In this document: in pieces, positions 1,959-62,620 of the stretch | How the letters are laid out: every line of letters begins with the position of its first letter | How positions within the stretch are numbered: the stretch's first letter is position 1 | Sequence record: MK509462 | Length of the DNA: 64,000 nucleotides | From: Shigella phage MK-13 | Direction: 5' to 3' (one strand) | Position numbers and translations under genes: made by a program | The notes under the pieces: model-generated | Database searches by the model: none | What the model was told of the DNA's origin: nothing | What the model saw: only the letters and a program-made list of their open reading frames with translations

Positions 1959-2459
1959 CTAGCCCAGAAACACTACTAAAGTCAAATTTGTGAAAGCACT
2001 GCGGCTATTGCGCAACATTTCATGGGCGGCAGCCAAGCGTTTCGGATCATGAAGTGTATCAGAGAACACGATGATGTTTGCTTTATCGATACCCGTGCCC
2101 ATGTAATGGGAGATGGTTGTCGTGTGCTGTTTCTTGTCTACATCGGGTGGCGGTACATCCGCGCCTGCTCGGGAGTGGAAGAAATAATCGCGTTCACGAA
2201 CGCTATGGAAGACGCCCATGATGTTGAGGTTGTTCTCTGTCTGGAAATCATAGGACAGAATCTTCTTCAGCGCGGCGGTATGCCCAGTCTGGCGCAGCAT
2301 GCGATAGTACAGTATGTTTCCAGGACAGGTGGGGTCCGTCACGCCTCCCCTCGATTGGCGATCTTTCTGGATTTCATACGCATCCAGGATAAGTTGTTGG
2401 ACCATTCCAATATGGGCAGTCAGGGAGATTTCTACTTTACGCTTGATCATGGATTTCAT
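1959..2459 (-). CDS. hypothetical protein (166 aa)
   Basis: Minus-strand ORF in the co-directional gene block. Confidence 0.5.
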   Translation of the reverse strand: MKSMIKRKVEISLTAHIGMVQQLILDAYEIQKDRQSRGGVTDPTCPGNILYYRMLRQTGHTAALKKILSYDFQTENNLNIMGVFHSVRERDYFFHSRAGADVPPPDVDKKQHTTTISHYMGTGIDKANIIVFSDTLHDPKRLAAAHEMLRNSRSAFTNLTLVVFLG

Positions 2460-2577
2460 TTGGTGTATCCTCAGTTAGGTTCCGCTCATGGGGAACGGGT
2501 CCATTATACACCGAATACTGGAAATGAAAAAGAGGCCGGAGCCTCTTTTGTTAACCCATGATGATCGCGTTCATGAC

Positions 2578-2811
2578 TTATTCCTCTTCATATTTGCCTG
2601 TCCTGAAGTTCCACCTTCGTGCATTCTTCAGGTCGAGGTCTTTGAAGATATTCCCAAAGATCTTTTGGAAGTCGGTCTGCTCTTGTTCTTCCTCAAGATC
2701 CTTGGGTTTCTTGACAGGCTCTTTCACCATACCACCTTCGGGTTTCCCCACATCGGTGGTAGTGGTGCCAGGGGCTGCCGAGTCTTCAAGAAAGTCCTGG
2801 AAGCCCTTCAT
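2578..2811 (-). CDS. hypothetical acidic protein (77 aa)
   Basis: Minus-strand ORF immediately downstream of the Ig-like gene. Confidence 0.4.
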   Translation of the reverse strand: MKGFQDFLEDSAAPGTTTTDVGKPEGGMVKEPVKKPKDLEEEQEQTDFQKIFGNIFKDLDLKNARRWNFRTGKYEEE

Positions 2812-2813
2812 GA

Positions 2814-3623
2814 TTAGACCACAGCCATTTCACAACGGGTGGAGGCCACAGAGTGGCCGTCGGCGTCTTCAACAACACACCAGTACTCACCCTCGTCTGC
2901 GGCATCAACTGCAGTGATAACCAGGCTCGCAGTTGCAGCAGTGGCGTTGGCGCCAGCATCGATCACCACACCTTCACCGCCAGGGACATCAGAGAAGTAC
3001 CAAGCATATGTGTATGGGGTAGTGCCGCCTGTAGCAGCGATGGTGAAGGTTGCGTCTTCACCTGCTGTTACATCCTGAGAAGCAGCCAGATCAGTAGACA
3101 GAGCCAGCGCACCCGCCACTGTGATGACGGTAGAGTCAGTGTGACCACCTTCGATGGTAACACCGTACACAGTCACAGAACCAGGAGCCAGCAGCTTGAA
3201 TTTACCACCGCCGATGTGTACAGCTTTGGTGATGTCACCAGAGTACCAGTTGACACCCTGGTAGGTCGCGTTCGCCGGAGCGACGGTCGCCAGCAGTTCA
3301 ACAACCTGACCGACTTCACCACCAGCAGTCGCAGGGGTGATGGTCAGGCCAGTGGTCAGCACGGCGCTTGGGTCGTGGATTTCGTAAGAGATCTCGAAGC
3401 CGATAGGCTTGGTTGGATCAACTTTGGTCACGCCATCAGCCTGAAGATTGCTCTTGGTCAGAAGTGCATCCAGGCCTTTACACTCGGTCAGGATCTCGTC
3501 AGGGTCTTGGTTAAGACTGGTCTTTTCCCAACCCTTGGCAGTGCCTGTCACGGTGTGCAGACGCTCGGTTTCCGGTTTGTTGCGAACAACTTCCGGTGCT
3601 ACTAATACAGTGATTGTTGGCAT
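2814..3623 (-). CDS. Ig-like domain protein (Hoc-like / BIG2-type)
   Basis: ATG at 3623 with GGAGGA SD; contains a BIG2-like segment (LLATVAPANATYQGVNWYS) and an Ig-like C-terminus (YTYAWYF...GEYWCVVEDADG); ORF-track start at 3635 is GTG. Confidence 0.6.
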   Translation of the reverse strand: MPTITVLVAPEVVRNKPETERLHTVTGTAKGWEKTSLNQDPDEILTECKGLDALLTKSNLQADGVTKVDPTKPIGFEISYEIHDPSAVLTTGLTITPATAGGEVGQVVELLATVAPANATYQGVNWYSGDITKAVHIGGGKFKLLAPGSVTVYGVTIEGGHTDSTVITVAGALALSTDLAASQDVTAGEDATFTIAATGGTTPYTYAWYFSDVPGGEGVVIDAGANATAATASLVITAVDAADEGEYWCVVEDADGHSVASTRCEMAVV

Positions 3624-3994
3624 GGTTTCCTCCACTCGCCCAAATCGTTGTTCAGAGCCATTAATAGCTCGTTATCTGGTTCGTATGAACCGGAACATAA
3701 ATCATCACGCCATACGCCTAACGTCAACAAAGCAGCCTTGAGGCGCGGAAGCTGAGACTTATCCGTTTTCAACACAAGCATACGACAGACTGCTTCTGCT
3801 TCGAACGTATTGAAGAGAGTGATCAGCTGATTCAATATGAGCCTTGGACTCTTGCCAGGCACAAATCTCTTCAATGATTGGTTAATTAGCGAAATTCGCT
3901 GTATGTCTGTCAGCAACTCATCCCGTGAGATAGAATCAACAATGTAATGCCTCAAGGCATACTCTATCAGATTGCTTTCGTCAACGATAACCAT
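3602..3994 (-). CDS. hypothetical protein (130 aa)
   Basis: Minus-strand ORF, overlaps the next gene start. Confidence 0.5.
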   Translation of the reverse strand: MVIVDESNLIEYALRHYIVDSISRDELLTDIQRISLINQSLKRFVPGKSPRLILNQLITLFNTFEAEAVCRMLVLKTDKSQLPRLKAALLTLGVWRDDLCSGSYEPDNELLMALNNDLGEWRKPCQQSLY

Positions 3995-4023
3995 ATAGAT
4001 TAATTCAGCTGTTGTACACTGCT

Positions 4024-4449
4024 TTATTTAATCTGCAATTTTTCGATCAGTTGAGCAATCAACGTAATGCGATCTTCTACTGTGATACCCAAAGGTTCAG
4101 CCAGCAGCTTCAGGTCGTCCATACCCAGAAGGTTCAGAGTATCTGCTGTAATGTTGGTGGAGATGACAGCGCCCTTCTCAAACGGCTTGCCATACTTGTC
4201 GCGACCATAACGCTTCAGCGTGGACGCCAACCCTGGAAGCTCCTGGAGGAGTTCTTTGGTGCCGTCTTGGTATTCGCACACCCAACCGTACCCGCCAGCG
4301 TAGACGACGCCTCCATCCCCGCCTGTAGGCATGTTGTCTACAGCGCGTTGCAGGTAGGTAGGTAACACACCTTCCTCCTTCGCCTGGATGTCATCAACGG
4401 GGGCTGCAGTTGCGGTTTCAACTTTCTTGGTTTCGGGTTTCTTCGCCAT
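4024..4449 (-). CDS. hypothetical protein (141 aa)
   Basis: Minus-strand ORF with lysine-rich N-terminus. Confidence 0.55.
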   Translation of the reverse strand: MAKKPETKKVETATAAPVDDIQAKEEGVLPTYLQRAVDNMPTGGDGGVVYAGGYGWVCEYQDGTKELLQELPGLASTLKRYGRDKYGKPFEKGAVISTNITADTLNLLGMDDLKLLAEPLGITVEDRITLIAQLIEKLQIK

Positions 4450-4723
4450 GATTGGTTCTCCTATAGACTGTTATGTATTTACCACAGCAATTGCAGCAGT
4501 ATACGTGCATTGCATACCCATCATCTGTGAAGTCACAACCACCACAGCGACAGAACAACTTCACGAACTGGTCGCCATGCACTTCACGGGGAGGGAATTG
4601 TTTGTGGGAGTATTCCCTGGTCTCTCCTTCGAATTGGAAAGAGTCAATCAGGAACTTCGTTATCCGGCGGTGTGGTCCATATGCTTGCTGGGCATATTTG
4701 AAGTAGACATCAGTGGTTAACAT
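4418..4723 (-). CDS. cysteine-rich small protein (possible zinc-binding)
   Basis: 101-aa ORF with CRCGGC...CCNCCGK cysteine cluster. Confidence 0.45.
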   Translation of the reverse strand: MLTTDVYFKYAQQAYGPHRRITKFLIDSFQFEGETREYSHKQFPPREVHGDQFVKLFCRCGGCDFTDDGYAMHVYCCNCCGKYITVYRRTNHGEETRNQES

Positions 4724-4774
4724 ATCGACCTCAAAGAAAAGGAGGCCGAAGCCCCCTTGCAGGTTTACTGAAGA

Positions 4775-6337
4775 TTACTTGTACAGGCCAGTGACGTCAA
4801 TAGACTTGTGCTGGCGGTTGTACTCAGCAGTGTAGTCATCCAACACCAGGTATTCGCAGCAGCGGATTTTACTGGAGCCATAATCGTTGGTGATAGACAC
4901 GATATCTTTCGGGTTCAGCTTACAGCGAACAACGCGCTGGCCAACAGAACCGAAACACTGTTTCAGGTAGGCCAGGGAGCACACATGCAGACCGTATGAA
5001 CACAGGTCGGAGTTGTTGTCGTTCACGAATGAGCGAGCCATGCGCACGATAGTGCCTGGTGCGTTGCTGATCGTGTTGCTGTGTTTGTCCATGTAGTTGC
5101 CGCGCACCGATTTGTAGAGGATGATGTCACCATCGTCGTCAATTTCGATGTCGGAGTACGCCATGAACTCATAGATGCGCCCAGACTGAACCAGAGCAGC
5201 CGACGGGTTCTGGAACATTTTGTCCATAAACTTCGCCATGCGGTCCAGGTTGTGGAAGTCACCCTTCAGCATCAGCGCCAGTACACGCTTGGCGATGGAT
5301 GTGCCTGTGATGTCATGGCCAGACCAGCGGACACGGTTGTCAGACACGTCTACCAGACCTTCAGCGTACTTCGCGATGGCATCACGAGGGCGCATCAGCG
5401 AGTATGCCAGCTTCACGTCTTTGTCTTTGATCGCCTGTACGATGCGGTCATATGCTGGATGTGAAGTGGTGATCGTTTCCGGCTTGCCGTCAATTGCGAT
5501 AACAACGCTGTCAGGCAGAATCAGGATCTGGTGTTCGTTCAGGAACACGTCCAGGTCTTTCGCGCCGAAGTCCTGCTTGGTCTTCTTGTCATCAGCCACT
5601 TCTTCAACTTCTTTGATAGCGACAGCGAATTCCACAGAAGACAGAGCCAGGCGCAGGGTGCGGCCGAGGATGGCATCGAAGTAACCAACACGACGACGGG
5701 CATCCAAGGATCCACGAATAGGATAGGTTTCCCCGTCAACCACAACGCTGATTTCAACGTTGCTCGGAACTTTATCCGCACCTTCTGACAGCGCCACAGA
5801 AATTTCTGCCATCTTACCGATAGCTTCAACGCCGAAAGCGCGGCTGTTTCCTTCAACAGGAGTCAGTTCGGATTTTTCAAAGAAAGCCCCTTTGAAATTG
5901 CCGTCGTTAGTGAGACACAGATACTTGTTGTGGTTCGGTAGATATGCCCCAACATACCATTCTGAGTCATCTTTGTCTTTGGCCGTGCCGCCCGGTTGCA
6001 CCTCGAACACTTCCTGCTCTTCCTGCTTGATAGGAGAGATCACAGTTACCTTGTTTTCCTCCTCAGTAATCCGGACCAGCAGAGCGCGAGCAATGGTCTT
6101 GGCGCTTACAGCAAAGAACTCAGCCAGGGCGCGGTTGCTTTCGCCAGCCTTGCTCTTCACCTGAATCTGCTGAATCTCTTCAGTGGTCAGAGATTTCAGC
6201 GATAACGGGTTAACACCGAGTTCCGTGTCTGCAACACGTTGTACAGTCGAGCGGGGTATGCCCAACAGAGTGGCAATTGCGCTCTGGCTCATGCCTGCCT
6301 TCAAATGCTTGAGGATCTTTTCGTCAATCTTGTTCAT
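4775..6337 (-). CDS. rIIB: rIIB-like protein
   Basis: ATG at 6337 (ORF-track start 6424 is TTG); N-terminal HTH-like segment MSQSAIATLLGIPRSTVQRV; C-terminus ...GLHVCSLAYLKQCFG...RVVRCKLNPKDIVSI..DY...KIRCCEY resembles rIIB as recalled; lies directly downstream of rIIA as in T4. Confidence 0.65.
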   Translation of the reverse strand: MNKIDEKILKHLKAGMSQSAIATLLGIPRSTVQRVADTELGVNPLSLKSLTTEEIQQIQVKSKAGESNRALAEFFAVSAKTIARALLVRITEEENKVTVISPIKQEEQEVFEVQPGGTAKDKDDSEWYVGAYLPNHNKYLCLTNDGNFKGAFFEKSELTPVEGNSRAFGVEAIGKMAEISVALSEGADKVPSNVEISVVVDGETYPIRGSLDARRRVGYFDAILGRTLRLALSSVEFAVAIKEVEEVADDKKTKQDFGAKDLDVFLNEHQILILPDSVVIAIDGKPETITTSHPAYDRIVQAIKDKDVKLAYSLMRPRDAIAKYAEGLVDVSDNRVRWSGHDITGTSIAKRVLALMLKGDFHNLDRMAKFMDKMFQNPSAALVQSGRIYEFMAYSDIEIDDDGDIILYKSVRGNYMDKHSNTISNAPGTIVRMARSFVNDNNSDLCSYGLHVCSLAYLKQCFGSVGQRVVRCKLNPKDIVSITNDYGSSKIRCCEYLVLDDYTAEYNRQHKSIDVTGLYK

Positions 6338-6368
6338 CTTGTAGTTCCCACGTTGGTTAACAGGACTA

Positions 6369-9125
6369 TTATGCCCTGATGATGGAATTTGAAATAACGT
6401 CCAAGTAATCCGAAGAATTTTCAATCGGGTTCAGAGCGCTTGGTTTGTAGTTCTCTTTCAAGAACCGGATAACACGGTGGCGCTCGATGGTCAATCGGTT
6501 TTCCCGCCTTGCTTTCAATGACGGAGTCCTCGATATATCAAACGGCGTAAATCCATGAGACCGCAACACATCCGAAGCGTAGCCAAAGATCTGTAGCATC
6601 TGATGTTCTGAACGGAAGATCTTTTCGTCACGCTCGTTGGCGTACAAATTCACGTTAAGAGAATGTATTGTGTCCTGGAAATGGCTAAAGCGGCGCTTGT
6701 CATTGATTGAAACCGGGGCTTTCGCCAGGCTTTGGTAATGACGTACAGTCTGCTCATCCAAGATATCGTCCACGACTTTCATTAACTTGTTGTAACGGCT
6801 GACCAATTTGCCATAACGATCGTCTTCAACATCACCAAACGCCTGGTGAACCAGACGGCTCCCGTATTTTAAACGATCCGCCCCAAGGCGCATGCGGCGG
6901 TATGATTCCAGTATGCGCCTGGCGCTATCGCGCTCCAACATAGGCTTCACGTTTTCCAACATGATCTTCAGGATTTCATCGATCGGGATGAAGACTTCTG
7001 GGAACTTCTTCATCATTGGCACGGATTTACGGCGAGCCAGGAAGATCCTTCTGTGAACGTTCAGTATGTCGCTGATATACACTGGCTTGCCTTCATCGTC
7101 AACACTGACTGCGTGCTCGTACAGAGATTTACGAATACCCCGAGCCGCCGCCGTCGTCAACGTTCTGTCCATCACCTGATGGATACACTCATGGCCGGAC
7201 ACCTCAATGTAGACGATGCGCTCGCCCTTGTTGATAATATCTGAGATCTGGTCGCCCGTCAGTTCTTCTTGCAGGCAGATATCGAAGTTGCTGGATGTGA
7301 ACGGAAACAGGCCAGGGTCTTTGGTGACCGGAGGCGTGACATACGTCAGTTCGTTCATGAACTTGACTTCAGCAGGCTCCAGCACCGCACTCAGCCAATC
7401 GACGAACTTGTCAGCGAAGCACAGATAATCAACCGTCGTTTCTTCTTTACCAATCCAAGTTTCAAAGAAATCATAGAGAGCCTGAGAATTATTGAACGCA
7501 GGGTTGTCCTTAGATTGGTTGCGCTTGGTGACATAGGATGTGTTCGGCTTGGCCACGATGACCATCGTTCCTGTATCTTTCAGCTGCTTGATCTTCAGAT
7601 TACGTGCACGAACACTATCTTCGATCACCACAGTAACGTGCTGTCCACGATCAATCCACTTCTGGATTTCTGAAATGGTCAGGGTACTGGACTCACCCCA
7701 GTCATAGAAGATCTCCATAGAGAACGGCGATGACAGCTCATTGAACGGCGCGGTATGGCCATAATCGCGATCAATCTCAACAGGCAGCGGGTAACGGTAA
7801 TATGAATCATGGAAGCGCTTGTCCGCCGGGTATTCCTTTTCAACCATCTTACGGAACCCGCTACCGAACATTTCGCTCAGTCTTGCCTTCTCCATATACA
7901 GGGCAAGAGGACCACGCTTACACGCCAACTCCAGGTCGCGCATCTTTTCTGCCAAGATTGCATTGGCGGTGCCCTTAAACTCCTCAGAGAGCGTCTCACG
8001 CGTGAATTCGTCATACGACAGGTCTTCACGCGACGGCGGTACGTTCAGGGAACCGAGTTCGAAGAACGTATAGGACGACGGGAACTTGCTCATGATGGAA
8101 GCAGTGTCCGGGTCCAGCTGGTCCAGGTCAATCGGGTACGACACACCACCCATCACAGCATAATGGGTGTTCCCCTGGCCTTTCGGCTGGATGTACGTAT
8201 TGTTGACCTTGAAATCATAACTGATATCTTCCCAGCTGAAGCGGTATGAAGCGTTCTCAACAATTGGGCGTTGTTCAGGGCGCATAACACGACCAAGACG
8301 GACCAGTTCATCGGAGAATGCAGAGAAACGAGCGTTCTTCACCGGGATCTTCACCGTCATACCGTTGAACTCATCAGTGTCTTCCGGCTTTGGATCACGG
8401 GTTTCAAGATCTTTGGTGATCAGATCAACAGTCGGGATGCGCTTGGCGTTCAGGTACATCAGGAAGCGATGGAGTTTACCGTTCATGCGGCTTTCCACAG
8501 TGAACGAATCCGATACCGCAAATGGTGATTTGGAGCCAAGACCGAATGCCCCAATCTGATCATCATCTTCTTCCTTCGTACTGTGGAAGAGGGTGGTGTA
8601 CAATCCAGGCGTACGAATGATCTCGCCGTCTTCACGACGGAACACCAAAGACCCATTGTAGAACCCTGGAATACCGATGACTTCGGCCGAATCGGGGATC
8701 TCGTCTTCCTTCACGACCATGTTGCCTTCCAGCAGCACCTCATCTTCCTGCGCTGGGATGGCTTCACCGATGATCTTCTCAAGCGGCAGACCGATACCGT
8801 AATCACGGATTTCCAGCCATGGCTCAAAGTCATCAGGCAAATGCACAACAACTCGTGTGCCCTTCGGTGCCAGGTATTTGCTGTGGCGGGCAGGAGGGGG
8901 AGTGAGAGGCGCGTAGTGGGATGCTACCATGCGGTGCATACGATCACGCATGCCATGGGAGTCGATGGCGTTACAGGTGGTTTCACGCAGGGCTGCAGCC
9001 TCTTTGTAACGATACAATGATGAGAACAGAGTCTCAAACATCTTGTCGTTCATTTTGACGTTAAACGCCTGCCCCTGAATGGAAGACGACGAGCGGATGA
9101 AGTGCTCGGACTTGCGCATTTTCAT
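6369..9125 (-). CDS. rIIA: rIIA-like protein with N-terminal GHKL ATPase domain
   Basis: 918-aa ORF; Bergerat-fold motifs RETTCNAIDSH (N-box), DYGIG (G1), IGAFGLGSKSPF (G2); GSLNVPPSREDLSYDE segment; adjacent to rIIB and near topoisomerase II as in T4. Confidence 0.8.
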   Translation of the reverse strand: MKMRKSEHFIRSSSSIQGQAFNVKMNDKMFETLFSSLYRYKEAAALRETTCNAIDSHGMRDRMHRMVASHYAPLTPPPARHSKYLAPKGTRVVVHLPDDFEPWLEIRDYGIGLPLEKIIGEAIPAQEDEVLLEGNMVVKEDEIPDSAEVIGIPGFYNGSLVFRREDGEIIRTPGLYTTLFHSTKEEDDDQIGAFGLGSKSPFAVSDSFTVESRMNGKLHRFLMYLNAKRIPTVDLITKDLETRDPKPEDTDEFNGMTVKIPVKNARFSAFSDELVRLGRVMRPEQRPIVENASYRFSWEDISYDFKVNNTYIQPKGQGNTHYAVMGGVSYPIDLDQLDPDTASIMSKFPSSYTFFELGSLNVPPSREDLSYDEFTRETLSEEFKGTANAILAEKMRDLELACKRGPLALYMEKARLSEMFGSGFRKMVEKEYPADKRFHDSYYRYPLPVEIDRDYGHTAPFNELSSPFSMEIFYDWGESSTLTISEIQKWIDRGQHVTVVIEDSVRARNLKIKQLKDTGTMVIVAKPNTSYVTKRNQSKDNPAFNNSQALYDFFETWIGKEETTVDYLCFADKFVDWLSAVLEPAEVKFMNELTYVTPPVTKDPGLFPFTSSNFDICLQEELTGDQISDIINKGERIVYIEVSGHECIHQVMDRTLTTAAARGIRKSLYEHAVSVDDEGKPVYISDILNVHRRIFLARRKSVPMMKKFPEVFIPIDEILKIMLENVKPMLERDSARRILESYRRMRLGADRLKYGSRLVHQAFGDVEDDRYGKLVSRYNKLMKVVDDILDEQTVRHYQSLAKAPVSINDKRRFSHFQDTIHSLNVNLYANERDEKIFRSEHQMLQIFGYASDVLRSHGFTPFDISRTPSLKARRENRLTIERHRVIRFLKENYKPSALNPIENSSDYLDVISNSIIRA

Positions 9126-24312: not shown

Positions 24313-24457
24313 GTTGGGTTCCTCAGTGGGTTAGCCATATGGGGTATTTAGGCTTCCCGCACCGCCAGGCCTGGTTTGTACAGGACGATCTCACGGAAAT
24401 ATTCAAGAAAGGTTTCATAGATACCCCACACGGGTTGTATGGGGTATTTAGAAGGGA

Positions 24458-27786: not shown

Positions 27787-27870
27787 TGGAGCGGGAGAGC
27801 AGGATTCGAACCTGTCCAGTGATCGTCGCCGATGATCAGTCGGCTACTGTCCAACCCCTATGGCTCCCGC
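27787..27870 (-). tRNA. tRNA-like gene, near-canonical (tentative anticodon GAT)
   Basis: Perfect 7-bp acceptor GCGGGAG/CTCCCGC plus T and CCA, T-loop TTCGAAT, 5-bp anticodon stem GCCGA/TCGGC; one extra nucleotide at the T-stem/acceptor junction and a D-stem mismatch. Confidence 0.45.
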
Positions 27871-28093
27871 GAAATAAGGACGGGCTTCACACCCGATTGA
27901 GCATTTGATCTGCCGTAGCCCAACTCCCCGCGCTTCTCAGCGCCGATTGGTTAACTGGCGACCAGTGCCTTCTGGTTCGATCTCCTGGAACTTTACAGGC
28001 TTTGCGCCCGACCATTTCTGGAAGTTGGGGCATCGTTTCCGATGTGGAGTCACCCCATTTTATACACAGCGTGGCTGCAACGCTTACTGTGTT

Positions 28094-28177
28094 TGGTGTG
28101 AGTGGATGGATTCGAACCACCGCGCTGTTACGGGGAGATTTACAGTCTCCTGCATTCGACCGCTCTGCCACACTCAC
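28094..28177 (-). tRNA. tRNA-Tyr (anticodon GTA), type II with long variable arm
   Basis: Acceptor GTGAGTG/CACTCAC + A + CCA; anticodon stem GGAGA/TCTCC with loop CTGTAAA; T-arm GGTGG-TTCGAAT-CCATC; 84 nt. Confidence 0.75.
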
Positions 28178-28434
28178 ATTTGGTCTACCGCTGCGTGCTG
28201 GGCCACGCTCGAGGACATCGGCCATCCTTCCTCAGCTAATCCACGCAGCGGCAGATTTGTTTCAGAGTGTCCGGTGTAGCAACCCGTGAGGTGCGCACTA
28301 CTGTAGCCTCTACACTCTGAATTTGGTGGGCGTTACTATCGTCGTCTTCGGATTCCGTTCGGCTATTGGACAGAGGCTTGGAGCTTGTCGGTCGCGTACT
28401 TCGTGCCTATTCACTTTCGTTCACACCCATTGTC

Positions 28435-28510
28435 TGGCGACGATGACAGGACTTGAACCTGTGACATATGGATTAACAGTCCACCGTTCTACCGACTGAA
28501 CTACATCGTC
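28435..28510 (-). tRNA. tRNA-Asn (anticodon GTT)
   Basis: Full cloverleaf: acceptor GACGATG/CATCGTC, D-arm GTTC-AGTCGGTA-GAAC, anticodon stem GTGGA/TCCAT with loop CTGTTAA, T-arm ACAGG-TTCAAGT-CCTGT, discriminator G, CCA; 76 nt. Confidence 0.9.
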
Positions 28511-28511
28511 T

Positions 28512-28736
28512 TTATCCGTGCTTGTTCGCTTCAATCGCCCTTAATTGGGCATCAGCGTCAGCTTTGGTGTCATGTGTACCAAGAACCTTCGTCTTGGTGT
28601 GGTCAAGGACAACCCACTTGTCACCTCGCTTTTCAACAAACTCGACAATCTCTTTGTTGTCGGTAGCGAGGCCATCCCACTCAGCAATAAAATCACCGAA
28701 CGTTTTCATCATACTCACCAATTGTTTATTGAACAA
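28512..28736 (-). CDS. hypothetical protein (74 aa)
   Basis: Clean minus-strand ORF ending 2 nt before tRNA-Asn. Confidence 0.5.
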   Translation of the reverse strand: MFNKQLVSMMKTFGDFIAEWDGLATDNKEIVEFVEKRGDKWVVLDHTKTKVLGTHDTKADADAQLRAIEANKHG

Positions 28737-28938
28737 CTGGTTTATTTAGGTGCTCCCAAGGCGGTATTTGAATCCCGCGATCCCATCACACCTGCCGTAG
28801 ACCGGAGCTTGCTGGCAGTCCAACAATGTTTGGCGGGGTTTGAGGATTTTCACCTCACCTGCTGGGTTTGGCCGCCCAGCCGTTCTCTATGAGGATTCGC
28901 TGTCCGGACAACTATCCCTTAAACTATCGCCCCTCAAT

Positions 28939-29018
28939 TTGGTTGGAGGAGAAGGATTCGAACCTTCAACGGCTGCCGCCATCCCCTCAGGGAATGTCTA
29001 CCCCTTCCATCATCCTCC
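28939..29018 (-). tRNA. tRNA gene, isotype unresolved (tentative anticodon TGA)
   Basis: Perfect acceptor TGGAGGA/TCCTCCA + A + CCA and T-arm GAAGG-TTCGAAT-CCTTC; D-arm and anticodon-arm register could not be resolved by hand. Confidence 0.55.
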
Positions 29019-30538
29019 AAATTATTGTGTGACCAACCAAGGACTGTCAACCCTTTATCCCGTTTGTGCATGATCAGTTCATGCAGGCCTGTTTGTGCGC
29101 CTCACAGCATGCGCTTCTGTTGGTCATTGGCTTGCACCGTAGCCTCGCAACAGGCGTTTATTTTTCCAGGGCTTTCCACTTGCAAGTCTTAACCATACAG
29201 GGATACGGGCTTGCAAGATCGGGTTGGTCACAACTCTGATGGCTCTCGCCTTTCCGCTCATTTACCTGTCATCCACAACCGATATACATTATGGAATCTT
29301 GAGAGCCATCAGAGTTGCAGCCATGCTACAACCCGCACCTGGGAGAGGACAAGGTGATCGACCCCAGATACTTGCCTGCTTTCGCCAGGCCAAACGGTTT
29401 AGCGTCGGGTGCCTCCCGATGCCATTATCATGGCGAATAATGGCGTTGACTTATCCTCAGGTGGTTCTTGCCACTCAACCCTTGCGCTTAGCAGGATTCA
29501 CTAAACAACCCGCACTTCAGTGTCTTCGTCACACTTCAGCACTTGTCCTCTAACGTTCAGACCAAACGAGGCTGGCCGATAGCAAACTTGTTCTCTGGTA
29601 TTTTGTGACCCGCCAGAACGGTATGGGTTGATAGCCCGAACTCAGTTTGTATCGTAGAGTGATCACACTTGTCAGGATGATCACTATTTTGCGAACTCGA
29701 GAATACTGCACCTGTCTCGGGTTTCCCCTTAGTACGGTCACTCATTGTTCGAAGCAGTCAGGGAGCTACCCTTGATGACCGCGCTTATCTTGAGCTGTTC
29801 CTGGTGCCCACCAGTGTCCGGAATGTATAGGCATCGCAGCTTTACAAGGCAATGGTCTATTTCACCCATCGCTCTCCCAAGTTCGCAAAGTAGAGTTCTC
29901 TGAACTTCAATGACCCCTCATCTTGTACTATCGCCGCCGGGAACGTTCACCATGTGAATCAACCCTTGGGTTAAGTTCAACGTCCAGAGGACTCTACTTT
30001 GCGTTGTGGGGGCTGACCCCCACACGGCTACTTCTTTAACAGGGATTGCCAGCCCTGGGGATTCCACTGTTTAAGGCTTCATCCCATAACGCCTTAGGCG
30101 TGTTCTCAAATTATTGAGCTTGCTTAACTGCAAACTGATGCGCTGTGAGACACATCTTTGAGGGCACTCAGTGTGCAACAGGCTCCGATATTTCATAGGG
30201 CATTACTGCCTCGGATTTGAGTTGCCTTTCTCCTGAAACTCCATGCAGTCTCGCGTCTGACGCGGAATGCCCTCAAAGATGTGGAGCCGCTTTAGGGAGT
30301 CGAACCCAAGTGATTGGCCAGCGCTGACCTCACACCCCACCTGATATGTTCACCGGAACTTGCCTACTCAGGAGCTTATCCCCTTTTGACAATCAGGTAT
30401 AGCGGCATTGTAAATCTGTTTGGGCGGAGGCCTGTAACCAGCAGGCATCTCCTAGCGAACTTCTGAACACCAGGCTCGGGTGCGCCTGTCGCTGTGGTGA
30501 GTTCGACTTAACTCCTGAGCGGTTATTCCCAGTCGTCG

Positions 30539-32430: not shown

Positions 32431-32438
32431 CTAAATAT
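32431..32438 (+). promoter_or_regulatory. late-promoter-like motif CTAAATAT
   Basis: Variant of the T4 late promoter TATAAATA, about 40 nt upstream of the gp6-like start. Confidence 0.3.
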
Positions 32439-36316: not shown

Positions 36317-36324
36317 CTAAATAC
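36317..36324 (+). promoter_or_regulatory. late-promoter-like motif CTAAATAC
   Basis: Lies within the 5' arm of the 36319-36357 hairpin. Confidence 0.35.
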
Positions 36325-41473: not shown

Positions 41474-41481
41474 CTAAATAC
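41474..41481 (+). promoter_or_regulatory. late-promoter-like motif CTAAATAC
   Basis: Overlaps the 5' arm of the 41478-41510 hairpin. Confidence 0.35.
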
Positions 41482-52812: not shown

Positions 52813-52820
52813 CTAAATAC
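52813..52820 (+). promoter_or_regulatory. late-promoter-like motif CTAAATAC
   Basis: 23 nt upstream of the ATG at 52843. Confidence 0.35.
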
Positions 52821-62612: not shown

Positions 62613-62620
62613 CTAAATAC
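62613..62620 (+). promoter_or_regulatory. late-promoter-like motif CTAAATAC
   Basis: 27 nt upstream of the scaffold ATG. Confidence 0.35.

Follow-up and report, generated by a model that had tools for sequence, protein, structure and literature searches.

Capsid decoration proteins with Ig-like domains are known from phages T4, T5, N4 and Bas63/Sf14, and they differ in how the domains are arranged. Hoc of phage T4 is a small, acidic accessory virion protein with tandem Ig-like domains, whereas T5 pb10 and the Hex-Dec proteins of Bas63 and Sf14 have the reverse polarity to Hoc, i.e. an N-terminal anchoring domain is followed by at least one C-terminal Ig-like domain. Hex-Dec proteins carry 1-4 Ig domains and their genes lie over 10 kb away from the structural module, and strong negative charge has been reported for both Hoc and Hex-Dec (PMC12609058). 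The protein considered here is encoded at 2814..3623 on the minus strand of a 64,000-nucleotide stretch of Shigella phage MK-13 (record MK509462; hereafter the window) and is a conserved Ig-domain virion protein of the ViI-like phages (Ackermannviridae). The gene is already known; it is annotated in RefSeq as a structural protein with an Ig domain, and its product has been found in the virions of relatives. Its domain architecture, its genomic setting and its probable place on the particle are compared below with those of the described decoration proteins.

The window comes from an Agtrevirus phage with 98% DNA identity to Salmonella phage P46FS4. In a Megablast search positions 2400-4500 matched 222 phage records, the top ones (98.2-98.6% identity) being Salmonella phages P46FS4 and SKML-39 and Shigella phage Ag3, which belong to the genus Agtrevirus, subfamily Aglimvirinae, of the Ackermannviridae. 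The gene order, read by mapping the window onto the P46FS4 annotation, has topoisomerase II and MazG genes at the window start, a histone-like gene (1959-2459) that follows the cluster containing the Ig gene, then rIIB (4775-6424), rIIA (6369-9125), and after rIIA the DNA polymerase and four tRNA genes. A morphogenesis block extends from ~32.4 kb and includes baseplate wedge, tailspike, neck, terminase, sheath, tube, portal, protease and scaffold genes; the major capsid gene lies just past the window end. The four tRNA genes (Ile-GAT, Tyr-GTA, Asn-GTT and Ser-TGA) occupy 27787-29019 on the minus strand, a region in which P46FS4 annotates few CDS.

The Ig gene encodes a 269-residue protein of 27.6 kDa with a pI of 4.3 and a net charge of -21. 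It runs on the minus strand from an ATG at 3623 to a TAA stop at 2816-2814, and its first 22 nt are shared with the 3' end of the DUF7207 gene upstream. A mechanical list of open reading frames begins the gene further upstream, at GTG 3635; the ATG at 3623, and with it the coordinates 2814-3623, are right because a Shine-Dalgarno sequence GGAGGA, read from the sequence at 3628..3633 (minus strand), precedes this ATG by 4 nt and because the orthologous proteins begin MPTI. Over residues 1-269 the protein belongs to PHROG 215 ("structural protein with Ig domain", E 3.7e-80), and tblastn matches with a coverage of 80% or more are present in 268 phage records, nearly all of them Ackermannviridae. 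The protein is 99.6% identical to P46FS4 gp169, likewise annotated as a structural protein with Ig domain, 96% identical to the copies in Dickeya phages including ORF6 of LIMEstone1, and ~85% identical to those of the kutterviruses CBA120 (orf006), ViI and others, all by tblastn; the 84% identity and the syntenic position of Sajous1 gp83 were verified as well. P46FS4 gp169, Ag3 orf00006, CBA120 orf006, LIMEstone1 ORF6, Sajous1 gp83 and the copies in SKML-39 and ViI are the same gene; the orthologues are 84-99.6% identical across 100% of the length, differing from the window copy by few substitutions and in nothing of substance. The window, P46FS4, LIMEstone1, CBA120 and Sajous1 share the order rIIA, rIIB, three small genes, Ig gene, small gene and histone-like gene.

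In the record of Salmonella phage 38 (NC_029042.1, 148517-151795) the Ig gene appears as three separate CDS, which are called "tail fiber", "tail fiber" and "Hoc-like head decoration". This apparently truncated gene was considered as evidence that the protein is dispensable, a use that was rejected since adjacent genes in the record are fragmented too, so that frameshift errors are likelier than a natural knockout.

Three regions can be distinguished in the protein: an N-terminal domain, a bacterial Ig-like group 2 (Big_2) domain at residues 87-171 (3111..3365, minus strand) and a classical Ig domain of the Ig_3/I-set type at the C-terminus, residues 172-269 (2817..3110, minus strand). The Big_2 assignment comes from Pfam (PF02368, residues 91-160, E 6.4e-5, 23.3 bits against a cutoff of 22.8), from a match to the Big_2 domain of PDB entry 7quz (E 2.8e-9) and from the AlphaFold2 model. 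The C-terminal domain is matched over residues 182-261 by three Pfam families, each above its curated cutoff: Ig_3 (residues 183-252, E 7.4e-10, 39.6 bits against 30), I-set (E 3.9e-7, 30.5 bits against 23.7) and ig (E 5.6e-6, 27 bits against 21.8). It contains the motifs TPYTYAWYFSD and EGEYWCVVEDA and is very acidic, with a net charge of -14. A full-length AlphaFold2 model, built on an alignment of 26 sequences, has two beta-sandwich domains at residues ~88-170 and 172-269 with block pLDDT values of 85-97 (85-95 in the Big_2 part), and in Foldseek searches it retrieves tandem Ig structures (titin, NCAM, Dscam and a Big_2-CBM56 protein) at E values from 1e-8 to 5e-10. The original prediction, made from the sequence, had described a BIG2-like segment followed by a classical Ig domain with the pattern YxYxWY...GEYWCVV; both the Pfam matches and the motifs agree with this description, and the Ig fold that it had proposed to check by profile search and structure prediction is supported by each. 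The type of C-terminal domain is not fixed within the family, since in some relatives (P0017-P0026) the C-terminal Ig domain is exchanged for one or two Big_2 domains.

The original prediction had also called the protein Hoc-like, and this is true of the architecture only. Like T4 Hoc it is a small, acidic accessory virion protein with tandem Ig-like domains, and a functional analogy as an exposed adhesive fibre appears probable. The similarity, however, is marginal and confined to the Ig regions, hhalign (E 0.0086) and BLASTP (E 0.029) aligning residues 92-269 of the protein with Hoc residues 4-187. In these two comparisons the C-terminal part of Hoc, beyond about residue 290, has no alignment with the Ig protein, which ends in an Ig domain; the conserved non-Ig domain of the latter is N-terminal, so that the polarity is reversed with respect to Hoc. 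Orthology with Hoc was consequently rejected, the Hoc capsid-binding domain having no counterpart. The polarity is instead that of T5 pb10 and the Bas63/Sf14 Hex-Dec proteins, and the family shares with them a variable number of Ig domains, an N-terminal domain of ~86 residues being followed by 1-3 Ig-like domains. The Ig domain of pb10 (5lxk, 8zvi) aligns with residues 170-266 (E 2.7e-7). The difference from the pb10/Hex-Dec type lies in the N-terminal domain, which has neither sequence nor predicted-fold similarity to any PDB chain; binding at hexamer centres is putative. The best solved relative of the C-terminal Ig domain is domain II of N4 gp17 (9e99_J, residues 88-180, E 1.8e-10). At 279 aa gp17 is of similar size and has this one related domain, but it is built from three Ig-like domains lying flat on the capsid and has no separate anchor domain. 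Further matches of the C-terminal Ig domain are to PHROGs 2973, 4069 and 3945, which are labelled "Hoc-like head decoration"; the PDB holds no orthologue of the whole protein.

That the protein is a virion component, and not a non-structural one, has been shown by mass spectrometry in two relatives. ESI-MS/MS of LIMEstone1 virions detected ORF6 through 4 unique peptides, with a coverage of 21.9% (PMC3296691), and the GenBank record marks this protein as "confirmed structural protein"; gp83 of the kuttervirus Sajous1 gave 43 spectra from CsCl-purified virions (PMC10892097). The virion proteomics that the original prediction had proposed as a check had thus been done in relatives, with a positive result, and the non-structural role that it had entertained finds no confirmation in these data. 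The corresponding explanation would be that the protein acts inside the cell, or early, and that its detection in virions reflects carry-over. Its gene does sit among early and replication genes, the same studies caught rIIB, DNA ligase, gp44 and the ssDNA-binding protein at low level (PMC3296691, PMC10892097), and, with the first gene of the Ig-gene cluster starting just 15 nt past the rIIB terminator, the cluster could be transcribed early by read-through from rIIB. We nevertheless regard this explanation as very improbable. Independent detections come from two phages that belong to different subfamilies, and the signal of the protein far exceeds that of the contaminants, non-structural proteins having <5% coverage against 21.9% for ORF6 in LIMEstone1 (PMC3296691), and most of them 1-5 spectra against 43 for gp83 in Sajous1 (PMC10892097). 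Moreover, a conserved anchor combined with Ig-like domains in tandem is what exposed virion proteins typically have, and at the Pfam stage no signal peptide, enzymatic domain or DNA-binding domain was found in the protein. An estimate of copy number from the Sajous1 spectral counts was rejected, since values per residue are similar for the portal, which has 12 copies, and for the multi-copy sheath.

The Ig gene is the fourth of five tightly packed or overlapping genes that form a cluster on the minus strand from 4723 to 2578. The first (4418..4723, 101 aa, PHROG 3805, function not known) is Cys-rich, with a stretch CRCGGCDF...YCCNCCGKY that suggests a small zinc-binding protein, and its start so close to the terminator leaves it without an obvious promoter of its own. 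It is followed by the genes of a DUF7440 protein (4024..4449, 141 aa, Pfam E 9.4e-48) and of the DUF7207 protein whose end overlaps the Ig gene start (3602..3994, 130 aa, Pfam E 1e-27), and beyond the Ig gene by a last gene for an acidic protein (2578..2811, 77 aa, PHROG 4805), whose ATG lies 2 nt past the Ig gene stop. Both ends of the cluster are marked by intrinsic terminators on the minus strand. The upstream boundary is a hairpin after rIIB found in a terminator scan (4739..4758, -13 kcal/mol), which is also annotated in LIMEstone1; the downstream one is a hairpin with a U-run after the last gene (2528..2549, -14.8 kcal/mol, z -4.4). Both are kept in CBA120, a phage of another subfamily than the window phage. 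Directly after the downstream terminator is a sigma-70-like promoter of the histone-like gene (2503-2530, minus strand; TTTTCA, a 16-nt spacer and TATAAT, 10/12 matches), also conserved in CBA120.

The position of the Ig gene, on the minus strand among early genes and far from the main morphogenesis block, had been described correctly in the original prediction, which had seen in it an oddity. For this T4-related family a place beside the rIIA/rIIB and topoisomerase genes is normal, because its structural genes are dispersed and each of them has a separate putative late promoter: gp48, gp53, gp27, the tape measure gene, gp54, gp26, gp5 and gp25 are found among replication genes in this manner, and LIMEstone1 annotates a late promoter for the Ig-gene cluster too. 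The annotated "putative late promoter" is identical to a TAAATA element at 4476..4481 (minus strand) in the window, resembling a late-promoter -10 element, which lies 26 nt upstream of the DUF7440 ATG and inside the 3' end of the preceding open reading frame; the site is kept in CBA120. A second TAAATA motif, at 4025..4030 (minus strand), 30 nt upstream of the DUF7207 ATG, is conserved in CBA120 as well. One of the cluster sites falls in coding sequence, and its conservation could reflect coding.

According to the 2011 paper on CBA120, no late promoter had been identified for ViI-like phages; TAAATA -10 boxes are annotated in the LIMEstone1 record. The exact T4 late promoter TATAAATA was tried and set aside, there being just two copies in the window and none near the Ig gene; the shorter TAAATA is the informative motif. 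It occurs 22 times in the window against 13.4 ± 3.4 expected. Nine of these copies are placed 10-40 nt upstream of a gene ATG, a placement for which the positional background is 1.9% (binomial P ~1e-10). Two of these nine are the cluster sites at 4476-4481 and 4025-4030, and others precede baseplate-wedge, tailspike, neck and scaffold genes; the 26- and 30-nt spacings in the cluster agree with those at the baseplate, neck and scaffold sites. Examples of the motif, which often reads cTAAATAcccca, are found at 24345-24350 and 24445-24450 on the minus strand and at 32432-32437, 36318-36323, 41475-41480, 52814-52819 and 62614-62619 on the plus strand. The strongest sites of the window read cTAAATAcccc, and both cluster sites are without the preceding C and the following CCC. 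By its distribution TAAATA looks like the late promoter of the family, which encodes homologues of gp55, gp33 and gp45 (PMC3184105). Late expression of the Ig gene is plausible on the strength of these conserved sites, enriched at gene starts, together with the presence of the three homologues; a literature search for an Ackermannviridae transcriptome found none. The suggestion, made in the original prediction, of a separately regulated decoration protein has in this way partly held: the protein is in the virion, is decoration-like and is probably separately promoted from the TAAATA sites, while its placement on the head is something we infer.

The N-terminal domain (residues 1-86; 3366..3623, minus strand), presumed to be the virion anchor, is the most conserved part of the protein. 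It is near-invariant, with 50 invariant columns in the alignment of 26 homologues, and over 16 sequences of the same architecture its mean pairwise identity is 0.87, against 0.67 for the Big_2 domain (87-171) and 0.72 for the C-terminal Ig domain (172-269). A phmmer search of 1.84 billion representative proteins gave 11 matches, 7 of them genuine relatives, all of which have the N-terminal domain followed by 1-3 Ig-like domains in a total length of 175-349 aa; three matches were rejected as repeat or composition artefacts, namely P0060 (Cna-B-type repeats), P0062 (repeats) and P0063 (WD40). Searching 5.8 billion proteins with a profile of the domain brought no additional relatives. In the full-length AlphaFold2 model residues 1-81 have pLDDT values below 50; modelled alone, the domain gives a small alpha/beta fold with a pLDDT of 80.8, a level of ~80 that was reached in just 2 of 5 models. 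A Foldseek search of the PDB with this model of moderate confidence returned no match (best E 3.7), and the profile of the domain has 0 matches among PDB sequences at E values up to 10. Taken with the Hoc comparison, these searches detect no similarity of the domain to known capsid-binding domains, and without a PDB match it is therefore not assignable to the pb10 or the Hex-Dec anchor type either.

A possible relative of the N-terminal domain is found within the cluster itself. Residues 11-64 of the Ig protein (3432-3593, minus strand), which resemble the N-terminal half of the DUF7440 protein, weakly match DUF7440 (Pfam E 2.8e-4, under the gathering score) and also PHROG 3795, the family of the gene two upstream (E 2.3e-3), and hhalign aligns the Ig protein with DUF7440 in the same register at E 0.0099, against 0.3 for the reversed control. 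These hints come from profile methods only, BLASTP of the Ig protein against its DUF7440 neighbour being not significant. The Ig protein and the DUF7440 protein may thus share a module, or may descend from an old duplication. A more far-reaching version of this idea, that the N-terminal domain is an undescribed virion-anchoring module confined to Ackermannviridae-like phages, without structural relative and perhaps a paralogue of the DUF7440 protein's N-terminal half, is a speculation to which we would give little credence. The other genes of the cluster, that of the DUF7440 protein included, are not reported in the LIMEstone1 or Sajous1 proteome (PMC3296691, PMC10892097). If the paralogy were true, the cluster would be a small family-specific decoration system and not a single Hoc analogue.

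Where on the particle the protein resides is suggested by its construction and by its relatives. The reading that we favour, with somewhat better than even confidence, is that it is an accessory decoration of the virion surface, anchored by its N-terminal domain, most likely on the gp23-type capsid shell, with its Ig domains directed outward, and probably made late. Surface decoration with an N-terminal anchor is favoured because a conserved module is joined to a variable Ig array, because of the acidity, and because the solved relatives are capsid decorations. The near-invariant domain of ~86 residues would bind a conserved structural lattice, most likely that of the gp23-type shell, and the Big_2 domain, followed by the very acidic I-set-type Ig domain, would point away from the particle as a module that can be exchanged and that serves adhesion or surface modification, in a mode of action like that of T4 Hoc, T5 pb10 and Bas63 Hex-Dec. 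Expression would probably be late, together with the other structural genes, from T4-type TAAATA promoters (dependent on gp55/gp33/gp45) within the terminator-bounded five-gene cluster.

Alternatively, the protein may belong to the tail, neck or baseplate, decorating the sheath, the collar or the branched tailspike complex, where its Ig-like domains would make weak carbohydrate contacts near the host surface. The mass spectrometry gives presence in the virion and no location, and many records name the orthologues "tail fiber" or "tail protein". The Big_2 domain, moreover, has matches to the Big_2 domains at the C-termini of both major and minor tail proteins (PHROGs 3995, 158, 41, 853, 885 and 290), and tail proteins are also among the Foldseek matches to viral models. 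The tail names, however, appear to have been transferred through Ig-domain similarity without experimental support, and the LIMEstone1 authors labelled the same protein "T4 Hoc" (PMC3296691); for neither the "tail fiber" nor the "Hoc" label was an experimental basis found. The closest solved relatives of the C-terminal Ig domain are capsid decorations, PHROG 215 is classed under head and packaging, and an N-terminal anchor with a variable Ig count is the documented layout of hexamer-centre capsid decorations (PMC12609058). On this balance a tail location is possible but a good deal less probable than not, and decoration of the capsid is preferred. Literature searches found no cryo-EM reconstruction of an Ackermannviridae capsid and nothing usable on tailocin proteomics.

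As a discovery the gene carries little weight, being annotated in RefSeq and its product having been established as a virion component of relatives since 2012. The unsupported "tail fiber protein" names in many GenBank records could, however, mislead host-range engineering of Ackermannviridae phages. Surface proteins that bear Ig domains, are probably dispensable and have a conserved anchor of compact size, e.g. T4 Hoc and T5 pb10, are useful display platforms, and the Ig protein would be usable likewise once it is located on the particle. Since its anchor domain is without a structural relative, a cryo-EM structure of this domain would add a new mode of attachment.
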